Origin: a virus
Lineage: Duplodnaviria; Caudoviricetes
Direction: 5' to 3' (one strand)
Virus record (IMG/VR): IMGVR_UViG_3300027859_000025
Span: 1 to 52,503 of that record
DNA: 52,503 nt
In this document: one piece after another, positions 6,072 through 48,391 of the stretch
Position numbering within the stretch: the stretch's first letter is position 1
How the letters are laid out: each line of letters starts with the position of its first letter
The notes under the pieces: generated by a model
What the model was told of the DNA's origin: nothing
Database searches by the model: none
The model's input: only the letters and a program-made list of their open reading frames with translations
Made by a program: the position numbers and the translations under genes

Positions 6072-7628
6072 ATGTCAGACGCAATAGTCAAAAACCTAAA
6101 CTTTGGTGATGATGCCAGGGTTAATGTATTTAAAGGAATTGAAAAACTAACGCAAGCTGTTAGTTCCACGCTTGGAGCTAGCGGCAAATGCGTTATGTTA
6201 GAGGATCACACTGGAAGACCAATCATAACTAAAGATGGTGTAACAGTTGCAGATTCTATAATACTGCGAGACCCAGTGGAAAACATGGGTGCTACGCTTT
6301 TAAAAGAAGCAGCTCGTAAAACAGTGCAAGAAGCCGGCGACGGAACCACTACGGCTACAGTACTTGCTCATGCGATACTTGAAGAAGCTTACAAAGTAGC
6401 TAACAAAACAAACTCAAGAGAGTTAAAAGACGGTATTAATTCAGCTATTGAAAAAGTGGTTAAGTATTTAAAACTACTTACAGTAGATGTTAAAGGTAGT
6501 ATGATAGATCAAATAGCTACTATATCTACAAACAATGATCCTGCGCTTGGAAAAATTATTGCAGATGCTTTTAGATCTGTAGATAACACAGGTGTAGTTA
6601 TGATGGAAACGGCTTCAGATGGTAAAACACATGTAGAAGTTGTTGATGGTGTTCAATACGACAAAGGTCTTAAGAACTCACACTTTGTAACTAACCAAGC
6701 AACAAAGACTGCTGAACTAGAAAATCCACTAGTGCTTTTACTAGAATCACCAGTTGATACAATACGACAGATTCAATCTGTGCTAGAGTACGTAATAAAA
6801 AACAACAAACCTTTGCTTATTATAGGCGATTTAGAACAAGGTGTTTTATCCGCTCTAGCTATGAATAAAATGAAAGGCAACATTAAAGTGAATGTTATTG
6901 ATGCTCCAACGTTTGGAATAAACAAGCAACAAATGCTTCAGGACCTTTCATTACTTACTGGTGCTACTATTATAAATGAAGACTTAGGTGATGACATGGA
7001 AATGATACAGCCTGAGCATTTAGGTAGTTGTGTTAAGAGTGTTACATCACACGAAGATACAATACTACAAGTAGAAGAATCACCAAAAGAAGTTATAGAC
7101 GTTATAAATGAAATTAAGTCTAAGCTTTTGAAAGAAAAAAATCCTAATAAGCTTATAAAGCTTGAAAAAAGATTAGCCATGCTGTCTGCTAAAATAGCAA
7201 TAGTTAAAGTAGGTGCTAATTCAGAAATAGAATTAAAAGAAAAAACAGATAGGGTAGAAGATGCTATCTGTGCTACTAAAGCTGCTATCAAAGAAGGGAT
7301 TGTTCCTGGTGGTGGTATTGCTCTATTAAACGCTGCAACAAATATAACAGCTAAGTCACTAGGTGAAGCGGTTTTATTAGAAGCTATTAAAGCGCCTTTT
7401 GAAACTATACTTGAAAACGCAGGTGTTCAGGATGTTGAAACACCTACTAGAAAAGGACAAGGCTACAATGTGGTTACAGGAAAAATGGTAAATATGATTA
7501 AGTCGGGTATTATAGATCCACTACTAGTCACCAAGAGCGCTCTTCAAAATGCAGCTTCTGTAGCAACAACAATATTATCTACTGATTGTGTAATTAATAA
7601 TTTAAGAATTGATGAAAGCAATAGGTAG
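6072..7628 (+). CDS. groEL: Phage-encoded group I chaperonin GroEL
   Basis: [47 protein letters not shown] and GIIDP motifs; no C-terminal GGM tail. Confidence 0.97.
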
Positions 7629-11847: not shown

Positions 11848-12156
11848 ATGGCTTTTAAACTCAATAATCCTCCGTATAAAATAAATAATACTCCAATATA
11901 TAGTGTAGATATGGAAGACGGGGTTATGGGCAAAGCTAATAATAATGGTACCATTATTATAAATAAAGATGTAGATCCTTCAAAAACTCAAGACGTTATA
12001 GACCATGAAATGGTTCATATAGATCAAATGAAACGTGGTGATCTTGATTATGATAATGAAAACGTTTACTGGAAAGGCAAAAAATACCCTAGAAGTAAAA
12101 TGAAAGAAGGAGCAAAAAACCTACCTTGGGAAGCCGAGGCTTATAGAAATGCCTAA
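11848..12156 (+). CDS. Small zincin-like metallopeptidase
   Basis: VIDHEMVH (HExxH) with downstream LPWEAEAY. Confidence 0.75.
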   Translation: MAFKLNNPPYKINNTPIYSVDMEDGVMGKANNNGTIIINKDVDPSKTQDVIDHEMVHIDQMKRGDLDYDNENVYWKGKKYPRSKMKEGAKNLPWEAEAYRNA

Positions 12157-12604
12157 AAAGAAATTTAAAGATACAACTGTTGGAAAGCTTTTATTCGGAG
12201 CTGCATCAGTTATAAATCCTACACTGGGGAATGTACTCCAAGGTGTGATGTCACCACAAGAAGCAATTGCTGAAATAACTAAAGCAGATGTTTCTAATGA
12301 TGACAAAATAAAATTACAACAATTAATATACGAACAGCAGAATAAAGAAATAGAAGCCATAACAACTCGTTGGCAAGCAGATTCAATGTCTGACTCTTGG
12401 CTTTCAAAAAATGTACGACCACTAGTTTTAGTGTGGTGTATTACTATTTTCTCGCTAGCTGGTATATTAGACAGTGTTGAAACTATACCATTTGAAATAA
12501 ATTCACTATGGAACGACACTTTTGAAAAAGTAATGATGGCTGTGGTCTTAGCTTATTTCGGCGGACGCACAACAGAAAAAGCAACAAATATATTTAAAAA
12601 ATAA
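12149..12604 (+). CDS. Holin (3TM/GTA-holin-like)
   Basis: RWQADSMSDSWLSKNVRPL, then hydrophobic helices and AYFGGR. Confidence 0.75.
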   Translation: MPKKKFKDTTVGKLLFGAASVINPTLGNVLQGVMSPQEAIAEITKADVSNDDKIKLQQLIYEQQNKEIEAITTRWQADSMSDSWLSKNVRPLVLVWCITIFSLAGILDSVETIPFEINSLWNDTFEKVMMAVVLAYFGGRTTEKATNIFKK

Positions 12605-12615
12605 AAAATAAAAAA

Positions 12616-13278
12616 ATGGGAAGTTATATATCAAGTTTAAATAATTTTGCTACTCAAGGAATAGCATTCGTTACGAGCGTAATACAAGACGGGGTGGGTT
12701 TAACTAAAACTACTGATACATCTGCTGGTCTTACTCCAGGTTTAGCAGCAAATGATACTACAGTTTTTCCAAGCGGTGGAAGTTTACTTACTGCAATGCA
12801 AGGTGCTGGTATAGCAACTTATGATACTCCAACAGCAACTTGGCATCAAGATGTATATGCTTTTCATATGTCAACTACAGGTGGCGGGGCTGTAAATAAG
12901 GTTTCTGCAATAGTTTTAGATTCTTCTAAGGCCGCAAAAATTAATCAAGATATAACAGGGCTTACCATTCAATTTGACACTGATGCCTTGGTAGCAGGTA
13001 TAGGTGAACCCGGAGGAGCTGGCACCGCAAGCGGAGCGGTGACGCTGACGCTGCAAGCAGCCCCCCAAGTTGTATATCCTGATTCTACTAAATTCTGGAA
13101 CAATGAATGTGTTTCTGTTTACGCAGGAGGCGCTGCTGGAAACCTAGTAGGAGTATTAGCTAATGATGTTGGACCTATAACAATATCTACTAGTGGCGGA
13201 GCAGGTTTTTTAGAATTTGCTTTTAAATCTATAGATTCAACCTCAACAACATCAGCAAACTTAATACTAATTCAATAG
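12616..13278 (+). CDS. Putative virion protein (220 aa, G/A/T-rich)
   Basis: ORF track; composition only. Confidence 0.55.
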   Translation: MGSYISSLNNFATQGIAFVTSVIQDGVGLTKTTDTSAGLTPGLAANDTTVFPSGGSLLTAMQGAGIATYDTPTATWHQDVYAFHMSTTGGGAVNKVSAIVLDSSKAAKINQDITGLTIQFDTDALVAGIGEPGGAGTASGAVTLTLQAAPQVVYPDSTKFWNNECVSVYAGGAAGNLVGVLANDVGPITISTSGGAGFLEFAFKSIDSTSTTSANLILIQ

Positions 13279-13577: not shown

Positions 13578-13804
13578 TGGATTCAGTTATAAGAAAAATC
13601 AGTATAGGTTCTGATTACAAAAACGACGCTATGCACTACTCTGTAGGGCAGCAAGTTTATGGAGGTCACGAAATAGCTTATATTTTATTTGATGAAACTG
13701 ATGGATCTTATAATATTCATATAAAGAAAAACAACGAGGTATTGCCGTGGAAGAAGTTTAATTCTAATATGGCTGTATCTGTTGAGTATGATTTAGAATA
13801 TTAA
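13577..13804 (+). CDS. Hypothetical protein (75 aa)
   Basis: ORF track; TAATG coupling on both sides. Confidence 0.8.
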   Translation: MDSVIRKISIGSDYKNDAMHYSVGQQVYGGHEIAYILFDETDGSYNIHIKKNNEVLPWKKFNSNMAVSVEYDLEY

Positions 13805-14409
13805 TGAAAAGCTTATATGATTTTATTGTCAAACCTGTTGGTGATAAATATAAAAACACAATTAAAATAGCGGGTAAAGACGTTGTTATCAATACTAAAA
13901 TTGAAAACTGGAAGTTTGTAAACCGCTTAGCTGAAGTCATTGAAACGCCATTAGCCTTTAAATCAGGCATTAAAAAAGGTGATACAGTAGTTATACACCA
14001 GAACGTATTTAGAACCTTTTATGACATGAAAGGTAAAAAAAAGAAAAGCAGATCTTATTTTGAAAATGATTTGTATTTTTGTAGCCTTGACCAGGTTTAT
14101 TTATATAAAAATAAAAACGGTTGGAACACTGTTGGTGACAGATGTTTTATAACACCTATAAAAAGTAATGATTCTCTAACGCTTGATAAAGAGCGTAAGC
14201 TTGTTGGTATATTAAAATATGGCAATAAGTCCTTAGAAGCACTAGAAATAAACCCAGGAGACCTAGTTGGCTATACGCCTAATGGTGAATGGGAATTTTT
14301 AGTTGAAGGAAAAAGACTTTACTGTATGAAATCTAATGATATTGTAATTAAGTATGAACACCAAGGAAACGAAGAAGAATATAATCCAAGCTGGGCAGCG
14401 AGCAGTTGA
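13804..14409 (+). CDS. Tandem GroES-like protein (two Cpn10-like domains)
   Basis: Domain 1 SLYDFIVKP...AEVIETP...IKKGDTVV; domain 2 VGDRCFITP...GILKYG...INPGDLVGY...GKRLYCMKSNDIV. Confidence 0.65.
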   Translation: MKSLYDFIVKPVGDKYKNTIKIAGKDVVINTKIENWKFVNRLAEVIETPLAFKSGIKKGDTVVIHQNVFRTFYDMKGKKKKSRSYFENDLYFCSLDQVYLYKNKNGWNTVGDRCFITPIKSNDSLTLDKERKLVGILKYGNKSLEALEINPGDLVGYTPNGEWEFLVEGKRLYCMKSNDIVIKYEHQGNEEEYNPSWAASS

Positions 14410-14632
14410 GGAGTTAATCAAAGTAGCTAAAGAAGCTATTGTTGATTCAGATGATGATATATCGGCTGACAGACTCAAGAACGCAGCGGCCACAAAAAAG
14501 CTAGCCATATTCGATGCCTTTGAAATACTTAATCGCATTGAAGAAGAAGAAAACTTATTAAACGAAAAACCTAAAGAAGTTAAAGAAGAGAGAACTTTTA
14601 AAGGTTTTGCTGAAGGTAGATCTAAGAAATAA
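14354..14632 (+). CDS. Putative terminase small subunit
   Basis: 92-aa helical protein coupled (TAATG) to terL; called from position. Confidence 0.55.
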   Translation: MNTKETKKNIIQAGQRAVEELIKVAKEAIVDSDDDISADRLKNAAATKKLAIFDAFEILNRIEEEENLLNEKPKEVKEERTFKGFAEGRSKK

Positions 14633-16842
14633 TGTACAAACAAACGTTATACAAAATATTAAAAGATCATATAAAGCCTAAAGTTTTAAAACGTATGAAC
14701 CGCTACAAAAAATGGGAGTACGGTTATAAAAAAGAGCATGATATTGTAGTGATAAGTAAAGACGGTACAATAGGTGATATATACGAAATACAAAACTTAA
14801 AAATAGCTTTACCTAAAGTTAAAGAAGTACATAAGTTCGAAACGGATAAATGGGAATATACAGAATATCCTAAAGTGTTAAAAAAAATAAAGTCTGTATT
14901 TGATTGGGAAGAATATCCTTTAGACTTTAAAGAAAAATGGTATGATTACATCGATAATGAATTTACTAGAAGAGAAAAAGGCTTTTGGTTTTATAACAAA
15001 GGCATTTCTACTTATATCACTGGCACTCATTATATGTACTTGCAGTGGAGTAAAATTGATGTCGGTCAACCAGACTTTCGCGAAGCAAACAGGTTATTTT
15101 ACATCTTTTGGGAGGCTTGTAAGGCCGATGCCCGTTGTTATGGATTGTGCTACCTTAAGAATAGACGATCTGGATTTTCATTTATGGCATCAGGCGAGGT
15201 GGTTAACCTGGCAACCATATCCTCTGACTCTAGATATGGAATACTATCGAAGAGTGGACCAGATGCGAAGAAGATGTTCACGGATAAGGTTGTACCGATA
15301 TCAGTTAATTACCCCTTCTTTTTCAAGCCGATTCAGGACGGAATGGATCGTCCCAAGACCGAGCTCGCGTATAGAGTACCCGCGACCAAGTACACCCGTA
15401 AGAAGCTCGAGACCAACGAGACACTCAGAGAACTCGATGGACTTGACACCACGATCGACTGGAAGAATACCGGTGACAACTCGTACGACGGTGAAAAACT
15501 CAAACTACTCGTCCACGACGAGAGCGGCAAGTGGGAACGCCCGACGAACATCCTCAACAACTGGAGGGTTACGAAAACTTGTCTACGATTAGGTAGTAGA
15601 ATTATCGGAAAGTGTATGATGGGTTCAACTAGTAACTCATTAGATAAAGGTGGAGACAATTTTAAAAAACTATACAATGACTCAGACGTCACTCAACGAA
15701 ATGCGAATGGACAAACTCGCTCTGGACTATATAGCTTGTTTATACCTATGGAGTGGAATTACGAAGGATACATTGATTCTCATGGATTACCTGTCTTCGA
15801 CACACCGAAAAAAGCAAAGCAAGGACCTCAGGGTGAAATAATAGATTTAGGTGTAATAGAGTATTGGGACAACGAAGTTGAAGGTCTTAAGCAAGATCAA
15901 GATGCTTTAAATGAATTCTATAGACAATTTCCTCGAACTACTAAGCACGCTTTTAGAGATGAGTCAAAAGAATCTTTATTTAATCTAACTAAAATTTATG
16001 AACAGATAGATTTTAATGAAGATCTTAAAAATTCTATAAATATTACAAAAGGTAATTTTATGTGGAAGGATGGTGTGCAAGACAGTCAGGTTTTATTTAT
16101 GCCAAATACTAATGGCAGATTTTTAATAACCTGGGTTCCACCTGTTAATATGCAAAATGCAGTAATAACAAAAGGAGGTATTAAATATCCTTTAAATGAA
16201 AATTTAGGAGCTTTTGGTTGTGACCCTTATGATATATCAGGCACAGTAGATAAAAGAGGATCAAAAGGATCTTTACATGGTCTTACTAAATTTTCAATGA
16301 CAGACACGCCTCCAAACCATTTCTTCTTGGAATACATAGCTAGACCTCAAACAGCTGAAATATTTTTTGAAGACGTGCTCATGGCTTGTGTTTTTTATGG
16401 TATGCCAATACTTGCAGAAAATAATAAACCTAGATTATTGTATCATTTTAAAAGAAGAGGTTATAGAGGTTTTTCAATGAATAGACCTGACAGAAAAAGA
16501 AATAAACTTTCCATTACGGAAAGAGAGTTGGGTGGCATACCTAATTCAAGTGAAGATATTAAGCAAGCTCACGCCGCGGCTATTGAGTCTTATATAGAAG
16601 ATTTTGTTGGTTTAAAAGAAACTGGATACGGTGATATTTATTTTCAAAGAACATTAGAAGATTGGGCAAAGTTTAATATAAACAATAGAACAAAACATGA
16701 TGCTTCTATAAGTTCTGGATTAGCGTTAATGGCATGTAACAAGCATCGATATGCTCCAAGTGCACCTCGTAAGTTACAGTCTGTTGATTTAGGTATAAAA
16801 AAATACGATAACAAAGGAGTTACATCAAAAATAATAAATTAA
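14632..16842 (+). CDS. terL: Terminase large subunit
   Basis: Walker A-like KNRRSGFS, Walker B LLVHDESGK, motif III MGST, nuclease FGCDP and HDASISSG; precedes the portal. Confidence 0.92.
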   Translation: MYKQTLYKILKDHIKPKVLKRMNRYKKWEYGYKKEHDIVVISKDGTIGDIYEIQNLKIALPKVKEVHKFETDKWEYTEYPKVLKKIKSVFDWEEYPLDFKEKWYDYIDNEFTRREKGFWFYNKGISTYITGTHYMYLQWSKIDVGQPDFREANRLFYIFWEACKADARCYGLCYLKNRRSGFSFMASGEVVNLATISSDSRYGILSKSGPDAKKMFTDKVVPISVNYPFFFKPIQDGMDRPKTELAYRVPATKYTRKKLETNETLRELDGLDTTIDWKNTGDNSYDGEKLKLLVHDESGKWERPTNILNNWRVTKTCLRLGSRIIGKCMMGSTSNSLDKGGDNFKKLYNDSDVTQRNANGQTRSGLYSLFIPMEWNYEGYIDSHGLPVFDTPKKAKQGPQGEIIDLGVIEYWDNEVEGLKQDQDALNEFYRQFPRTTKHAFRDESKESLFNLTKIYEQIDFNEDLKNSINITKGNFMWKDGVQDSQVLFMPNTNGRFLITWVPPVNMQNAVITKGGIKYPLNENLGAFGCDPYDISGTVDKRGSKGSLHGLTKFSMTDTPPNHFFLEYIARPQTAEIFFEDVLMACVFYGMPILAENNKPRLLYHFKRRGYRGFSMNRPDRKRNKLSITERELGGIPNSSEDIKQAHAAAIESYIEDFVGLKETGYGDIYFQRTLEDWAKFNINNRTKHDASISSGLALMACNKHRYAPSAPRKLQSVDLGIKKYDNKGVTSKIIN
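14942..15592 (+). CDS. Candidate overprinted gene (+1 frame inside terL), 216 aa, N-terminal hydrophobic helix with Cys
   Basis: Longest alternative-frame ORF in the window; coincides with a local switch to C/G-ending terL codons. Confidence 0.4.
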   Translation: MITSIMNLLEEKKAFGFITKAFLLISLALIICTCSGVKLMSVNQTFAKQTGYFTSFGRLVRPMPVVMDCATLRIDDLDFHLWHQARWLTWQPYPLTLDMEYYRRVDQMRRRCSRIRLYRYQLITPSFSSRFRTEWIVPRPSSRIEYPRPSTPVRSSRPTRHSENSMDLTPRSTGRIPVTTRTTVKNSNYSSTTRAASGNARRTSSTTGGLRKLVYD

Positions 16843-19230
16843 ATGGGTATATACACCAATACTAGAAGTGCATTTCCTAGCCAAGTAGTTAGTGATCAAG
16901 AAAAAGCTAGCATTGAATATGGTAAGCAAGTAGCACAAGCTATAGAAGGAGAGTGGTTCTCGCAAGGTAGAACTACAGGAAATAGGTATATAACTAATTG
17001 GAATAATTTTAATCAATTAAGACTTTACGCGAGAGGCGAACAAAGTGTTCAAAAATATAAAGATGAATTATCTATTAATGGTGATTTGTCTTATCTTAAT
17101 TTAGATTGGACCCCTGTTCCTATCTTATCTAAGTTTGTAGATATAGTTGTAAATGGTATATCTCAAAAATCTTATGATGTAAAAGCTTATGCTCAAGATC
17201 CTGAATCTGTTAGAAAAAGAACTAACTATGCGACTAAGTTATATGAAGATATGATATCTAAAGAGTATCTTTTAAACTTAGAGCAAACGTTGGGTATTGA
17301 TGCATATCAATCTCCAAGTAAAGACGTAATACCTGAAACTCCAGAAGATTTAGAATTGCACATGCAATTAAGCTATAAGCAGTCTATAGAAATAGCTCAA
17401 GAAGAAGCTATATCCTCTGTGATGGCTCAAAATAAATATGATCTTACTAGAAGAAGGTTAAATATGGATTTAGCGGTTTGTGGTATAGCGGCTGTTAAAA
17501 CTGATTTTAATACTGCTAATGGAGTTACTATTGATTATGTTGATCCAGCTTATATGGTTTATTCGTATACAGAAGATCCAAATTTTGAAGATATTTACTA
17601 CGTTGGAGAAGTTAAATCTTTAACAATACCAGAGTTAAAAAAAGAGTTTCCGGGAATACCTGAAGATGAATTAAAAATTATTCAAAATACACCGGGTAAT
17701 AAATCTTATATAACTGGTTACGGTAATTATGATAACAATACTGTTCAAGTTCTTTATTTTGATTATAAAACATATCACAACCAAGTTTTTAAAATAAAAC
17801 AAACGGATCAAGGATTAATGAAAGCTATTGAAAAGCCTGATACATTTAATCCGCCAGAAAATGATAATTTTGAAAGAGTATCAAGATCAATAGAAGTTTT
17901 ATACAGTGGGGCCAAGGTTTTAGGAACTAATATAATGCTTAATTGGGAACTGTGTGAAAACATGACCAGACCTTATGCTGACACTACTAAGGTTAAAATG
18001 AATTATGCTATTTGTGCGCCTAGAATATACAAAGGTAGAATAGAATCTTTAGTAAGTAGATGCACTGGTTTTGCTGACATGATACAGTTAACTCATTTAA
18101 AACTGCAACAAGTAATATCTCGCATGGTTCCAGATGGTGTATATTTAGATATGGACGGTCTTGCTGAGGTTGATTTAGGAAATGGAACAAATTATAATCC
18201 AGCTGAAGCGCTAAATATGTATTTTCAGACTGGTTCTGTTGTAGGTAGATCACTTACTCAAGACGGCGAGATGAATGCTGGTAAAGTTCCAGTTCAAGAA
18301 CTACAAAGCGGAAGCGGTAATGCTAAAATAGCTAGTTTAATTCAAACGTATCAATATTACTTGCAAATGATACGCGATGTAACAGGGCTTAACGAGGCTA
18401 GAGATGGTAGTTTACCTGATAGAAACACATTGGTTGGATTACAAAAACTAGCGGCTAATGCATCTAATACGGCTACTAAACATATATTACAATCTAGTCT
18501 TTATTTAACTCTTAGAATATCAGAAAATGTAGCACTTAGAGTTGCCGATGCTTTAGAGTTTCCTCTTACTAAAAGCTCATTGCAAAATTCTATATCAACT
18601 TATAATATAAAAACATTAGAAGAGATAGTTAATTTAAATCTTCATGATTTTGGTATATTTTTAGAATTAGAACCTGATGAAGAAGAACAGGCTCAGTTGG
18701 AGCAGAACATACAAGCCGCTATCCAACAAGGCGGTATTAACCTTGAAGATGCTATAGATCTTAGACAGATTAAAAATCTTAAACTTGCTAATCAAATGCT
18801 TAAAGTTAAACGTAAAGCTAAGCAGAAGCAAGACATGGAGATACAGCAGTCTAATATACAAGCTCAAGCAGATGCTCAGGCTTCTACTGCTGAAAAAACC
18901 GCGATGGCAGAGGTGCAGAAACAAGAGGCTGTCACTAATACTAAAGTACAATTTGAACAATCAAAAAATCAAATGGAAATAGAAAGAATGCAAATTCAAA
19001 ATGAATTAGAAATTCAAAAAATGCAAAGAAGATTTGAGTTTGATCTTCAACTAAAGCAAATGGATATGCAAGCTGTTGGAGAAAAAGAAAAAATGATTGA
19101 AGATAGAAAAGACAAGCGTATAAAAATGGAAGGTACGCAACAAAGTGAAATGATTACGCAAAGAAACGTAGATGGACCTCCAATTAATTTTGAACAAGAC
19201 GTAGAGGTTGACATGAACGCCTTTATGTAG
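16843..19230 (+). CDS. Portal protein
   Basis: 795 aa immediately after terL; RDVTGLNEARDG; long Q/E/K coiled-coil C-terminus typical of podovirus portals. Confidence 0.85.
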   Translation: MGIYTNTRSAFPSQVVSDQEKASIEYGKQVAQAIEGEWFSQGRTTGNRYITNWNNFNQLRLYARGEQSVQKYKDELSINGDLSYLNLDWTPVPILSKFVDIVVNGISQKSYDVKAYAQDPESVRKRTNYATKLYEDMISKEYLLNLEQTLGIDAYQSPSKDVIPETPEDLELHMQLSYKQSIEIAQEEAISSVMAQNKYDLTRRRLNMDLAVCGIAAVKTDFNTANGVTIDYVDPAYMVYSYTEDPNFEDIYYVGEVKSLTIPELKKEFPGIPEDELKIIQNTPGNKSYITGYGNYDNNTVQVLYFDYKTYHNQVFKIKQTDQGLMKAIEKPDTFNPPENDNFERVSRSIEVLYSGAKVLGTNIMLNWELCENMTRPYADTTKVKMNYAICAPRIYKGRIESLVSRCTGFADMIQLTHLKLQQVISRMVPDGVYLDMDGLAEVDLGNGTNYNPAEALNMYFQTGSVVGRSLTQDGEMNAGKVPVQELQSGSGNAKIASLIQTYQYYLQMIRDVTGLNEARDGSLPDRNTLVGLQKLAANASNTATKHILQSSLYLTLRISENVALRVADALEFPLTKSSLQNSISTYNIKTLEEIVNLNLHDFGIFLELEPDEEEQAQLEQNIQAAIQQGGINLEDAIDLRQIKNLKLANQMLKVKRKAKQKQDMEIQQSNIQAQADAQASTAEKTAMAEVQKQEAVTNTKVQFEQSKNQMEIERMQIQNELEIQKMQRRFEFDLQLKQMDMQAVGEKEKMIEDRKDKRIKMEGTQQSEMITQRNVDGPPINFEQDVEVDMNAFM

Positions 19231-45130: not shown

Positions 45131-45592
45131 ATGGAAAAAATAAGTGATCATATAACATATGCAGAAGCTATACACTCAAGTACAGCTAAACGTAAAAATA
45201 TAGACAATACACCTAATCCTACTCAAGTAGAAACAATGGGTTTAACCGCTAGAAAAATATTTGAACCACTACGCAAATGGGTCGGTGGAGCAATTAAAGT
45301 TACATCATTTTTTAGATCAGCTGCTTTAAACGAAGCCATAGGAGGATCAGCAAGTTCTCAGCATTGTAAAGGCCAAGCAATTGATTTAGATGATGTATAT
45401 GGACATAAGAGCAATGCAGAGATGTACCAATGGATAAAAGAAAACCTAAACTTTGATCAACTTATATGGGAGTTTGGTACAGATATGAATCCTAACTGGA
45501 TACATGTGTCTTATGTTAACGATGAAGATAATAGAAATAAATGCTTGAAAGCATATAAAGAAAACGGTAAAACAAAATATAAAGTAATATGA
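45131..45592 (+). CDS. Peptidase M15A-family endolysin
   Basis: SFFRS..LN.AIGG, SQHCKGQAID (SxHxxGxAxD) and WIHVS. Confidence 0.88.
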   Translation: MEKISDHITYAEAIHSSTAKRKNIDNTPNPTQVETMGLTARKIFEPLRKWVGGAIKVTSFFRSAALNEAIGGSASSQHCKGQAIDLDDVYGHKSNAEMYQWIKENLNFDQLIWEFGTDMNPNWIHVSYVNDEDNRNKCLKAYKENGKTKYKVI

Positions 45593-46634: not shown

Positions 46635-46670
46635 GAAGGGGATCTCAATCGAGGTCCCCTTCATTGTTTT
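46635..46670 (+). terminator. Terminator between convergent modules
   Basis: GAAGGGGATCTC-AATC-GAGGTCCCCTTC stem followed by ATTGTTTTT. Confidence 0.85.
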
Positions 46671-48391
46671 TATCCGTCACAGGCAATACAATCTTCACTC
46701 ATAGCTTGTTGTGCTATATCACCACGTAGCACTGATTCAGTTCTAGTATAGTACAGGGTTTTAATACCTTTTTTCCATGCTGACATATGAACCTGATTAA
46801 TCCATTTAGGTGTAGCCACGCTAGGAAATGCTAGGTTTAAACTAACAGACTGATCTATATATTGCTGTCGTATACCAGCTTGATTTACTAGTTCGAGTTG
46901 ATTGATCTCTTTAAACGTTTTAAAAACGTCTTTAGCCGGTACATCGTGTGGTCCAACCACAACCCCGTCAAGCTCAGATAGACCTTGAACACTACCACCA
47001 TCTGCCAGTATTTTATCCCAAGTTTCATTTGTATTTATTTTAAGTTTTCTTAATAATTTTAAAAGTGTAGGGTTTTTTCTTATAAACGTACCTTTAGCTG
47101 ATTGCTCTGTAAATACATTTGCAGCCCAAGGTTCTATTCCCGGCGAAATGTTTCCGCTAAGCTTTGAATTACTAACAGTGGGAGCAATAGCGCGCAAGTG
47201 AGTATTACGCATGCCAGTGCCAACGCACCACAAAGGTTCACCATAAACCTCAGCAAGATCTCTACTAGCGCGTTCAGACTCGATTTTAATTTGCGAAAAT
47301 ATTTTCCTAGTTTCAAACTGAGCAAGCAGACCCTCAAAAGGTATAGCCTTTTCTTGGAGATATGTGTGCCATCCCAGTACACCCAACCCAAGTGCTCGTC
47401 CTTTCGTAGCAGAACGAATGGCATTTTCAAAACCTCTAAGTCCTTTTGCTCTTTGAATAAATTCCTCCATAACGCCATCAAGAAACCACGTGGCGTGATA
47501 TATAAGGTTGCTTCCTTTCCATTCATCATATTTAGCTAAGTTTAAAGACGACAAGCAACATACAAAGCTATGGTTCTCGTCTGTGTGTAATGTAATCTCT
47601 GAACATATGTTTGTCATATGTACCTTTAAGCCGTTGTCTTTGTAGGCTCGTGGGTTATTCTTATTTGTATTCCCCTTAAAAAGGATGTAAGGTTCGCCAG
47701 TAGCTTTACGCTTTTGAAGTAATTTTCCCCAACGTTTTCTAGCGTCTCTATCTCCTTGTTCAATTCGTCGCATGAACTTATCGCCAACCACAGCGCACTG
47801 GTGCATGTTAAGTGATTGTCTGTTGACATCACCTTTAGGTTCACGTATTTCGAGCCACTCATCGAAATCGGGGTGATCAATATTAATATTAACTGATGCA
47901 GCTCCTCGTCTGACAGATCCTTGATTAGTGGCAAGTATTGTCGAGTCGTATATTTTACAAAACGGCACAACGCCATCACTTGTTCCATTACCTGTTATTT
48001 TAGCGCCAGCGGGTCTTATTTGATTTATACCGATACCAACTCCACCGCCGTGCTTAGCGAGTAGCATCATCTCTAGGTTTTTACTTCCTATGTCTTGAAT
48101 CGAGTCTGCAACATCAATGCCAAAGCAAGATATAGGTAGACCGCGATCAGTCCCTGTGTTTGATAGCACAGGACTAGCCAGACACAACCAACCATTCCAA
48201 ATATAATCAAAAAACGTGTTGGCCAGTTCAGGTTTGTAAAGTCTACGCGCAACTGTTTTAGCAACACGCATGTATGCTTCACGAGGTGTTTCATCTTGAA
48301 GCAGGTAACCACCTGCGATAGTTTTTTTGTATACGTCTGTATCACCCCACTTAGGGTAATCTTCTCCTTTTTTCCATTCATTGTTCCACAT
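46670..48391 (-). CDS. nrdA: Ribonucleotide reductase class I alpha subunit, no ATP cone
   Basis: PISCF, TNICSE (NxCxE), VCCLSSLNL, AIAPT, KTLYY, C-terminal CIAC. Confidence 0.95.
   Translation of the reverse strand: MWNNEWKKGEDYPKWGDTDVYKKTIAGGYLLQDETPREAYMRVAKTVARRLYKPELANTFFDYIWNGWLCLASPVLSNTGTDRGLPISCFGIDVADSIQDIGSKNLEMMLLAKHGGGVGIGINQIRPAGAKITGNGTSDGVVPFCKIYDSTILATNQGSVRRGAASVNINIDHPDFDEWLEIREPKGDVNRQSLNMHQCAVVGDKFMRRIEQGDRDARKRWGKLLQKRKATGEPYILFKGNTNKNNPRAYKDNGLKVHMTNICSEITLHTDENHSFVCCLSSLNLAKYDEWKGSNLIYHATWFLDGVMEEFIQRAKGLRGFENAIRSATKGRALGLGVLGWHTYLQEKAIPFEGLLAQFETRKIFSQIKIESERASRDLAEVYGEPLWCVGTGMRNTHLRAIAPTVSNSKLSGNISPGIEPWAANVFTEQSAKGTFIRKNPTLLKLLRKLKINTNETWDKILADGGSVQGLSELDGVVVGPHDVPAKDVFKTFKEINQLELVNQAGIRQQYIDQSVSLNLAFPSVATPKWINQVHMSAWKKGIKTLYYTRTESVLRGDIAQQAMSEDCIACDG

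Follow-up and report, generated by a model that had tools for sequence, protein, structure and literature searches.

An open reading frame nested in the terminase gene

We analysed a 52.5-kb virus record from IMG/VR (IMGVR_UViG_3300027859_000025, positions 1 to 52,503; completeness estimate 82%), referred to below as the window, with a focus on an open reading frame (ORF) of 216 codons which lies in the +1 frame of terL, the gene for the large terminase subunit (Table 1). The offset between the two starts, (14942-14632) mod 3 = 1, places the ORF in frame +1 relative to terL. The host gene is matched by PHROG 6681 (terminase large subunit) over residues 24-734 of its 736-amino-acid (aa) product (E 1.2e-164), and its relatives are annotated as terL in GenBank records. 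Read from stop to stop, the nested frame is open for 222 codons (14924 to 15589). No other nested open run in the window is as long; the next have 162 codons (antisense) and 133 codons (+1 in nrdA). In 1000 synonymous permutations of the whole terL gene, the longest +1 run had a mean length of 60 codons and a maximum of 126. Openness was judged against downstream terL and 32 other window genes, and the longest +1 run was 21-74 codons in 32 of the 34 window genes, the exceptions being terL (222) and nrdA (133).

Table 1. Features at the terL locus, in positions of the window. AF2, AlphaFold2; pLDDT, predicted local distance difference test; GC3, G+C content at third codon positions.
Feature	Position	Strand	Basis or remark
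Putatively overprinted +1 ORF, 216 aa plus TAG stop	14942..15592	+	Frame +1 of terL; conserved openness
Last upstream +1 stop (TAG)	14921..14923	+	Open run begins at 14924
Putative start ATG, formed by TAT of terL Tyr104 and the G of Asp105	14942..14944	+	TAT kept
Hydrophobic, putative transmembrane segment, residues ~14-35, ending C-T-C-S-G (15035-15049)	14981..15049	+	Hydropathy, AF2
Basic S/T/P/R/G-rich tail, predicted disordered	15050..15589	+	Composition; AF2 pLDDT <50 for residues 36-216
C/G-ending codon stretch of terL, strong part of the shift, codons 227-317	15310..15582	+	GC3 0.72 versus 0.21 downstream
Stop codon TAG of the +1 ORF	15590..15592	+	Same end (codon 318/320) in 30 of 81 rows
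terL, large terminase subunit, older host gene, 736 aa	14632..16842	+	ORF; PHROG 6681
Antisense 119-aa ORF, not part of the feature	15333..15692	-	By-product of the GC-rich stretch

Relatives avoid stop codons in the +1 frame

Scanned with the terL protein, IMG/VR yielded more than 600 matching stretches. The best 80 (76-93% identity) were kept; together with the window they form a set of 81 rows, whose terL genes were codon-aligned and read in the +1 frame. The rows are treated as an unrooted clade, with gains and losses unordered. Five terL genes of 31-62% identity served as outgroups (MW202828, an elemovirus, phi19:3, phi38:1 and Gundel_1). Around terL codon 150, the open +1 stretch spans 215 codons or more in 35 of the 81 rows, 150-214 codons in 27 and fewer than 115 in 19. 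We refer to the 62 rows that are open for at least 150 codons as ORF-bearing, to the other 19 as ORF-less, and to a set of 32 rows as long-form. In the window and its closest relatives the last upstream +1 stop is at terL codon 97; elsewhere it is at codon 86, 83 or 58. The frame ends at codon 318/320 (30 rows), 308-313 (2 rows), 290 (17 rows) or 245-275 (13 rows). The five outgroups all lack the ORF. Their GC3 is flat, and +1 stops number 7-11 over codons 98-227 and 5-7 over codons 227-319, which argues that the ORF and the patch of raised GC3 described below are derived features of one marine clade.

The openness of the frame was compared with expectation by synonymous shuffling within codons 98-227, keeping the terL protein and the regional codon usage (300 permutations per row). 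Between 2.3 and 5.7 stops were expected; 58 of the ORF-bearing rows have none and the remaining 4 have one or two (P <= 0.027 for each of the 62). A +1 stop arises where a terL NTA codon is followed by a codon beginning with A or G, or an NTG codon by one beginning with A, and the use of these codons was split by the following base, with codons 325-735 as a control within the same gene. In codons 98-226 of the ORF-bearing rows, NTA was used in 5 of 1032 cases before A or G versus 342 of 1025 before C or T, and NTG in 0 of 588 before A versus 420 of 1469 before other bases. The downstream control in the same rows gave 1762 of 4095 and 994 of 2307 for NTA, or 43% in both contexts. The long-form rows gave 0 of 534 dangerous versus 188 of 546 harmless NTA codons, and 0 of 310 versus 66 of 212 in codons 227-306. 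Counted by alignment column, which is less inflated by relatedness than the count of cells, a stop-making NTA is ever present in 0 of 22 dangerous versus 10 of 20 harmless columns (Fisher P 1.3e-4), whereas the ORF-less rows hold NTA in 15 of the same 22 dangerous columns.

The avoidance is confined to one frame. The +1 frame is stop-free in 32 of 32 long-form rows over codons 104-226 and in 30 of 32 over codons 227-317, whereas the +2 frame of these rows carries 14.8 and 5.5 stops over the same two intervals. The three antisense frames have on average 1.1, 1.5 and 5.4 stops in codons 227-317, and are stop-free in 10, 8 and 0 of the 32 rows. These comparative data show that the +1 frame is held open by selection, in a frame-specific manner, in most of the relatives. 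The first-pass annotation had suggested an overprinted gene and proposed stop avoidance among homologues as the check, and its suggestion is supported by avoidance that is specific to both frame and context. The split of NTA and NTG use by the next base is in itself a simple and reusable test for telling a selected open frame from a compositional artefact.

Codon usage of terL follows the length of the nested frame

The GC3 of terL in 30-codon windows is 0.17-0.27 over codons 31-110, 0.37-0.47 over codons 111-210 and 0.63-0.77 over codons 231-300, and returns to 0.27 from codon 311. The 300-nucleotide window at 15301-15600 has a GC content of 0.507, the highest of 175 such windows (the runner-up has 0.453). 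The codon shift noticed on first inspection is thus real, with its strong start near 15310 and its end near 15570-15592 correctly placed, and a weaker shift already sets in from about 14960-15025.

The extent of this patch differs between the length classes of the ORF. In the rows that stop at codon 318/320 (n = 30), GC3 is mostly well above background, at 0.57-1.0 for most positions of codons 301-317, and close to 0 from codon 318. GC3 reaches background at about codon 289 in the class that stops at 290 (n = 17) and at about codon 250 in the class that stops at 259-275, and it is flat at about 0.1-0.25 throughout the ORF-less rows. Under a model of a neutral patch, the open frame should overrun the patch by about 12 codons on average, and the rough chance of two such sharp coincidences is 0.055; the coincidence of the patch edge with the +1 stop is suggestive, not decisive. 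The rise in GC3 extends to codons whose second base is not T, which are incapable of making +1 stops, and so stop avoidance alone is not its explanation. Third positions of terL are second positions of the +1 codons. C or G at a second codon position gives Ser, Pro, Thr, Ala, Arg or Gly, T gives hydrophobic residues, and A gives Lys, Asn, Glu, Asp, Tyr or a stop. The rise fits selection on the residues of the +1 product.

Two other features of base composition were considered separately. The antisense ORF listed in Table 1 was rejected as a gene, since it is not conserved and at most 10 of the 32 long-form rows are stop-free in any antisense frame; it is a by-product of GC richness. The spot that ranks second in GC richness in the window, at 13000-13149 (0.527 in 150 nucleotides), lies inside the ORF at 12616-13278 (+), where it encodes a Gly/Ala/Pro-rich stretch of a 220-aa protein without a PHROG match. 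This ORF has a GC3 of 0.19 and +1 stops as expected; the GC richness is caused by amino acid composition and involves no codon shift.

The predicted product

The +1 product would begin with a hydrophobic segment followed by a long basic tail. The Kyte-Doolittle maximum over 19 residues is 1.65-2.7 in all 58 products scored, and the mean is 2.20 +/- 0.25 in ORF-bearing versus 1.79 +/- 0.59 in ORF-less rows. The tail carries a net charge of +19 in the window and consists of S, T, P, R and G to 49%, with ranges of +9 to +28 and 40-54% among the long forms. Hydropathy, composition and AF2 modelling confirm what had been described from the single sequence, a hydrophobic N-terminus and a probably disordered tail rich in S, T, R and P. 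Across 44 relatives the identity of the +1 product to that of the window is 39-76%, and that of terL over the same codons 80-99%.

The initial view of this product as a lipoprotein is not supported. In a lipobox a small residue (G, A or S) precedes the lipidated Cys; in an alignment of 45 sequences the residue before C32 is I or T and that before C34 is T, such that no canonical lipobox is present. Many relatives have Pro directly after the S-G, and a Pro in that position speaks against cleavage by signal peptidase. Positive charge is much higher on the C-terminal side of the helix than on the N-terminal side, which would suggest, by inference only, an N-out, C-in anchor with a cytoplasmic tail.

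A profile search of 1.84 billion representatives gave 154 matches at E <= 1e-3, which indicates that the ORF has often been predicted already by gene callers; none of 38 cluster members of these matches is a named protein. Nine matches were examined. P0001 is the ORF itself, and six (P0014, P0016, P0028, P0033, P0067 and P0084) are chimeras whose reading passes from one of the two frames, terL and +1, to the other at differing points. These six are most likely indel or assembly errors, long only since the +1 frame is open, and such predicted proteins could mislead homology searches with terL. P0061 is joined to an unrelated gene: its N-terminal part was considered as a terL insertion and rejected, being a separate 164-aa gene with another genomic context and no Pfam match, on a chimeric contig. 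The ninth is a 3322-aa protein with a weak low-complexity match.

Start codon and synonymous sites

The Tyr104 codon that supplies the putative start is TAT rather than TAC in a ratio of 53:7 in ORF-bearing rows, compared with 142:161 for five other Tyr columns of the region pooled. An ATG is found 18-45 aa before the Cys motif in 58 of the 62 ORF-bearing rows. No motif resembling a Shine-Dalgarno (SD) sequence precedes the ATG at 14942, where the upstream region is A-rich, and an SD-like word occurs at -20 to -4 in only 6 of 35 window genes, whose upstream regions are A-rich as well. The scarcity of SD words and the A-rich upstream regions are consistent with host ribosomes that do not use SD pairing. 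Bacteroidota ribosomes ignore SD sequences, according to passages of PMC6847099 and PMC7797042.

Of the synonymous sites in codons 98-226, eight are fixed, and six of these cluster in codons 127-142. The six, each fixed in at least 95% of ORF-bearing rows, specify +1 residues L24, L27, L29, T33, C34 and L39, and the ORF-less rows differ at three of them. A comparison of ORF-bearing with ORF-less rows revealed no consistent difference at any terL residue (0 of 235 columns), which indicates that the new gene would be written entirely in synonymous sites.

Exchange of the segment among relatives

The segment that holds the ORF has a history of its own. Mapped onto a terL flank tree, the ORF-less label takes 12 changes, and well-supported branches force at least 11 of these; mapped onto a tree built from codons 98-320, it takes 3, and 17 of the 19 ORF-less rows group in one clade. 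These are FastTree trees, in which composition may attract rows within the segment tree and metagenomic chimeras are possible. The window and one relative (L030) are 89.7% identical in codons 98-320, with flanks at 73.2% and 72.4%. The discordant trees and these identities argue that the segment, with or without the ORF, has been exchanged among terL backbones. A patch acquired from a higher-GC phage had been offered as an alternative and is not supported: although the segment does recombine among terL backbones, a second IMG/VR scan with the protein of the overlap segment added 73 loci to the 80 and no donor emerged among these 153 loci, all with GC3 at or below 0.39 outside the segment.

In the assembly graphs of three RNA-seq-library runs, all from one study, contigs stop or fork at 15547-15583, with alternative sequences as loose ends. 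The branching lies near the end of both the +1 ORF and the recombining segment, and it fits co-occurring natural alleles while proving nothing.

The host gene and its surroundings

The portal gene begins at 16843, directly after terL, and a GroES-like gene lies upstream. The phage carries a chaperonin pair, GroEL-like at 6072-7625 (+; phrog_5725, E 2.8e-134) and GroES-like at 13804-14409 (+; phrog_13932, E 4e-24), and a small 92-aa ORF (14354-14632) sits between the GroES-like gene and terL. Lysis-type matches occur elsewhere in the window, to a holin family at 12149-12601 and to an endolysin at 45131-45589. A very AT-rich stretch lies at 2401-2700 (GC 0.137), where the sign of the AT skew flips and the genes appear to change direction; this may be an intergenic control or origin-like region. 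GenBank relatives are phages of Flavobacterium, Cellulophaga, Tenacibaculum and Maribacter (31-45% identity) and one uncultured phage (62%), and from these phage relatives only we infer a Bacteroidota-type host.

Residues K176, R178, D296 and E297 of terL are invariant in the alignment with outgroups. The K176/R178 and D296/E297 pairs presumably correspond to Walker A-like and Walker B motifs, which they resemble. A search for the ATPase domain gave no Pfam match (up to E <= 10) and no PDB match by sequence or profile, hhalign of terL against lambda gpA returned a probability of 0.1, and the AF2 model of terL has a mean pLDDT of 47, with values below 50 over residues 169-379. The placement of the overlap within the ATPase domain, as the first-pass annotation had it, is tentative and relies on the four invariant residues and their likeness to the Walker motifs.

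Interpretation and alternative explanations

Our preferred reading, to which we give a probability of roughly 0.75, is that the +1 ORF is a young, dispensable accessory gene overprinted on terL and that the terL codon shift is its footprint. The ORF is judged younger than terL by its narrower spread and by the five outgroups, which lack both ORF and patch. Late in infection, the terL mRNA would also be read from the internal AUG at 14942, with SD-independent initiation as for most genes of this phage. The product would have 216 aa, with a short N-terminus, one membrane-spanning helix ending in a conserved Cys-Thr-Cys-Ser-Gly and a basic, disordered tail of about 180 aa. Because third positions of terL are second positions of the +1 frame, selection on the product would push terL towards C/G-ending codons; it would exclude stops, disfavour hydrophobic residues and favour Ser, Thr, Pro, Ala, Arg and Gly. 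The gene would be dispensable and fast-evolving, would exist in at least three length classes and would be moved among terL backbones by homologous recombination.

Several observations weigh against this reading. The rows are all metagenome-assembled and mutually related, such that counts of cells overstate the number of independent events, and the ORF is absent from 19 of the 81 rows. In codons 227-319 the permutations expect only 0.5-3.7 stops, and composition explains most of the openness there. T-rich third positions account in part for the hydrophobic segment, which ORF-less rows also have in a weaker form, and the AF2 model of the product (45-sequence alignment) has a mean pLDDT of 41, with only the N-terminal helix at 61-70. 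No family was found for the product in Pfam, PHROGs, NCBIfam or PADLOC at E <= 0.01, and the ESM Atlas gave no usable match (recognition 1368, within the range of shuffled sequences). Contigs from RNA-seq libraries of two studies match 14931-15576 at 95-100%, but such contigs cannot show transcription, strand, starts or translation, DNA carry-over is possible, and the matches count neither for nor against expression. A drop in synonymous variation, which had been predicted for an overprinted gene, is not seen overall: variability is 0.5-0.6 in codons 161-310 of ORF-bearing rows versus about 0.4 gene-wide, and the 8 fixed sites among 98 in codons 98-226 are similar to 26 among 273 downstream, the exception being the cluster in codons 127-142. 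Most invariant +1 residues (C32, G36, G57, C112 and W135) are forced by terL Met or Trp codons. Most of the +1 sequence appears to be under little or no constraint at the amino acid level, and the undiminished synonymous variation argues that the product evolves fast.

It is also conceivable, if unlikely, that the +1 frame is translated and must stay open while its product has no function of its own, either because the tail detoxifies a hydrophobic peptide or because reading of the frame tunes terL mRNA stability or expression. The detoxification version presumes unavoidable internal initiation on an SD-less, A-rich mRNA. Fast evolution with almost no site-specific constraint outside residues 24-39, predicted disorder and the 19 of 81 rows that do without the ORF would all suit a functionless product, as would the ORF-less alleles, which would give only 22-48-aa peptides from the same region. 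These short-peptide alleles persist, however, so detoxification is not required; the three length classes with matching GC3 footprints over about 150-216 codons imply sustained selection on composition, and the Cys-Thr-Cys motif and the leucines are fixed via synonymous sites. A non-coding by-product, in the form of a GC-rich tract recombined from a higher-GC relative or of biased gene conversion at a recombination hot spot, we consider very unlikely. Such a tract would account for the separate phylogeny of the segment (12 versus 3 changes, and the identities between the window and L030), for the part of codons 227-319 that composition keeps open and for the loss of stops from antisense frames there. 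It would not account for codons 98-226, where GC3 is only 0.3-0.45 and yet no stops are found against 2.3-5.7 expected, nor for avoidance specific to context and to the +1 frame. No donor with GC3 above 0.39 outside the segment was found, high GC3 persists through synonymous codon identities of 0.4-0.7, and the patch edge falls within a few codons of the +1 stop in two classes (rough chance 0.055).

We rate lower again the idea that the DNA or RNA itself carries a signal (a pac site for packaging, an RNA element with or without structure, or a tract bound by proteins), which would make the ORF incidental. The most GC-rich 300 nucleotides of the window do lie in a packaging gene, and contigs do break at 15547-15583. 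What is conserved, however, is third-position composition and one stop-free frame: the synonymous sites themselves are not conserved, with variability above the gene average, 19 of 81 relatives and all five outgroups are without the patch, and the 19 ORF-less rows keep the terL protein. The least probable explanation, in our judgement, is programmed ribosomal frameshifting from terL, which would fuse an N-terminal terL fragment to the membrane segment. That between 6 and 46 codons of open +1 frame precede the ATG, depending on the relative, and that the expected ATG is missing in 4 of 62 ORF-bearing rows, would be in keeping with it. Against this, the upstream end of the open frame is not constant (codons 97, 86, 83 and 58) and in the window leaves only codons 98-103, in which no slippery motif was found by eye; the ATG-forming codon is preferentially conserved; and the fused public proteins switch at many places, as indel or assembly errors would.

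Returning to an overprinted accessory gene, its role can be suggested only tentatively: an inner-membrane-anchored accessory protein with a cytoplasmic tail, engaged in phage-host or phage-phage conflict or in late timing (exclusion or lysis control). A dispensable, fast-evolving, membrane-anchored, polymorphic protein that is late by position fits accessory proteins of conflict or lysis timing; an exclusion factor, which had been one of the initial suggestions, is possible, and a core packaging function is, in our best guess, not what the product would have. The other initial suggestion, a spanin-like protein, is not supported: the ORF sits between the GroES-like and portal genes and its product has no family match, and the holin-family and endolysin matches elsewhere mean that a spanin or a sole lysis role is not indicated.

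If the ORF is translated, an abundant marine phage group would carry an unannotated 216-aa protein hidden in its packaging-motor gene, and standard annotation, terL-based phylogenies and ratios of nonsynonymous to synonymous substitution (dN/dS) on terL would all be affected. Presence, absence and three length classes coexist on an unchanged terL protein, with a footprint that ends at the stop of the new gene. This would offer a natural series for the birth, lengthening and loss of a de novo protein and for the synonymous-site load that it places on an essential gene.

Further +1 frames in nrdA

The nrdA gene (46670-48391, -; ribonucleotide reductase alpha, NF006577, 644.9 bits, above cutoff) contains two +1 ORFs of its own, at 47629-47994 (-) and 47137-47535 (-), which are conserved in 80 IMG/VR relatives of 84-98% identity. 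The first-pass annotation had used these ORFs as a caution that length alone is no proof, but they are unsuitable as a null control, being themselves conserved. The +1 frame of nrdA is stop-free over codons 133-254 in 76 of 81 rows and over codons 286-418 in 57 of 81, and stops found in nearly all rows, at codons 106/108 and 255/259, flank these intervals. NTA is used in 18 of 1366 cases before A or G versus 340 of 792 before C or T in codons 133-253, and in 25 of 789 versus 304 of 785 in codons 341-418. GC3 is not raised over these ORFs and no family match was found for them. They look like further overprinted genes, and these parallels to the terL ORF suggest that overprinting is not a one-off in this lineage.

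A wider reading, which we think possible but doubtful, is that long overprinted genes arise readily in tailed phages of SD-blind (Bacteroidota-type) hosts. The A-rich late mRNAs would contain internal AUGs that ribosomes use at a rate high enough for whole proteins of 120-216 aa to be born inside the most conserved genes. One ORF in terL and at least two in nrdA would each be kept open by selection and be polymorphic in presence, the one in terL as a recombining cassette written in synonymous changes only. The terL-embedded product would serve as a membrane-anchored effector in exclusion or in the timing of lysis, and its synthesis would keep pace with that of the packaging motor.

Comparison with known systems

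In the literature searched, supplements aside, we found no overlapping gene in terL of these phages and no same-strand overlap of 216 codons, polymorphic in presence and length, in a core gene of a large tailed phage. Known systems share parts of the architecture; of those known to us, phiX174 E is nearest in design, and ORFs 19.2 and 19.3 of T7-like phages are nearest in location. The lysis protein E of phiX174 is encoded inside an essential gene in the +1 frame; its N-terminal transmembrane helix is conserved and its basic C-terminal part tolerates change. E, which lyses cells through a block in the synthesis of cell-wall precursors, has 91 aa and belongs to a 5.4-kb single-stranded DNA (ssDNA) phage without other lysis genes. 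The terL ORF resembles E in being nested in the +1 frame of an essential gene and in its predicted N-terminal helix and basic C-terminal part, a likeness of architecture only. It differs in its length of 216 aa and in belonging to a double-stranded DNA phage of more than 52 kb with its own holin-family and endolysin matches, which make an E-type lysis role less needed.

The o-spanin Rz1 of lambda and T7-like phages is encoded by a +1 gene nested in that of its partner Rz, within the lysis cassette, and is a Pro/Ser/Thr-rich lipoprotein with a lipobox. The terL ORF is likewise +1-nested in a phage gene, and its product would also be a small, Pro/Ser/Thr-rich protein of the envelope. Unlike Rz1, the terL ORF is without a canonical lipobox, its host gene is terL and the lysis genes lie elsewhere. 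In T7-like phages, gp18.7 (in 18.5) is named 'Endopeptidase Rz1' in the genome table of PMC4925675.

The same table lists two ORFs in gene 19 (terL) of T7-like phages, 19.2 (56 aa, pI 10.0) and 19.3 (42 aa, pI 11.9), and the printed coordinates of 36501 (gene 19), 37213 and 37687 place both in the +1 frame (PMC4925675). As far as this source goes, 19.2 and 19.3 resemble the terL ORF in being basic and +1 inside terL, but they are small, four to five times shorter, lie in an unrelated terL family and have no membrane segment claimed for them; no function or selection test is reported for them there.

Passages of PMC6195259 and bioRxiv 10.1101/229690 describe the products of proven overprinted genes of eukaryotic viruses as enriched in residues of high codon degeneracy and as highly disordered, and proven overprinted viral genes as having a narrower phylogenetic spread than the host gene and as often accessory. 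Within what these passages cover, the proven cases are mostly in small RNA or ssDNA genomes, unlike the terL ORF, whose Ser/Arg/Thr/Pro/Gly-rich and predicted disordered product is nonetheless like theirs.

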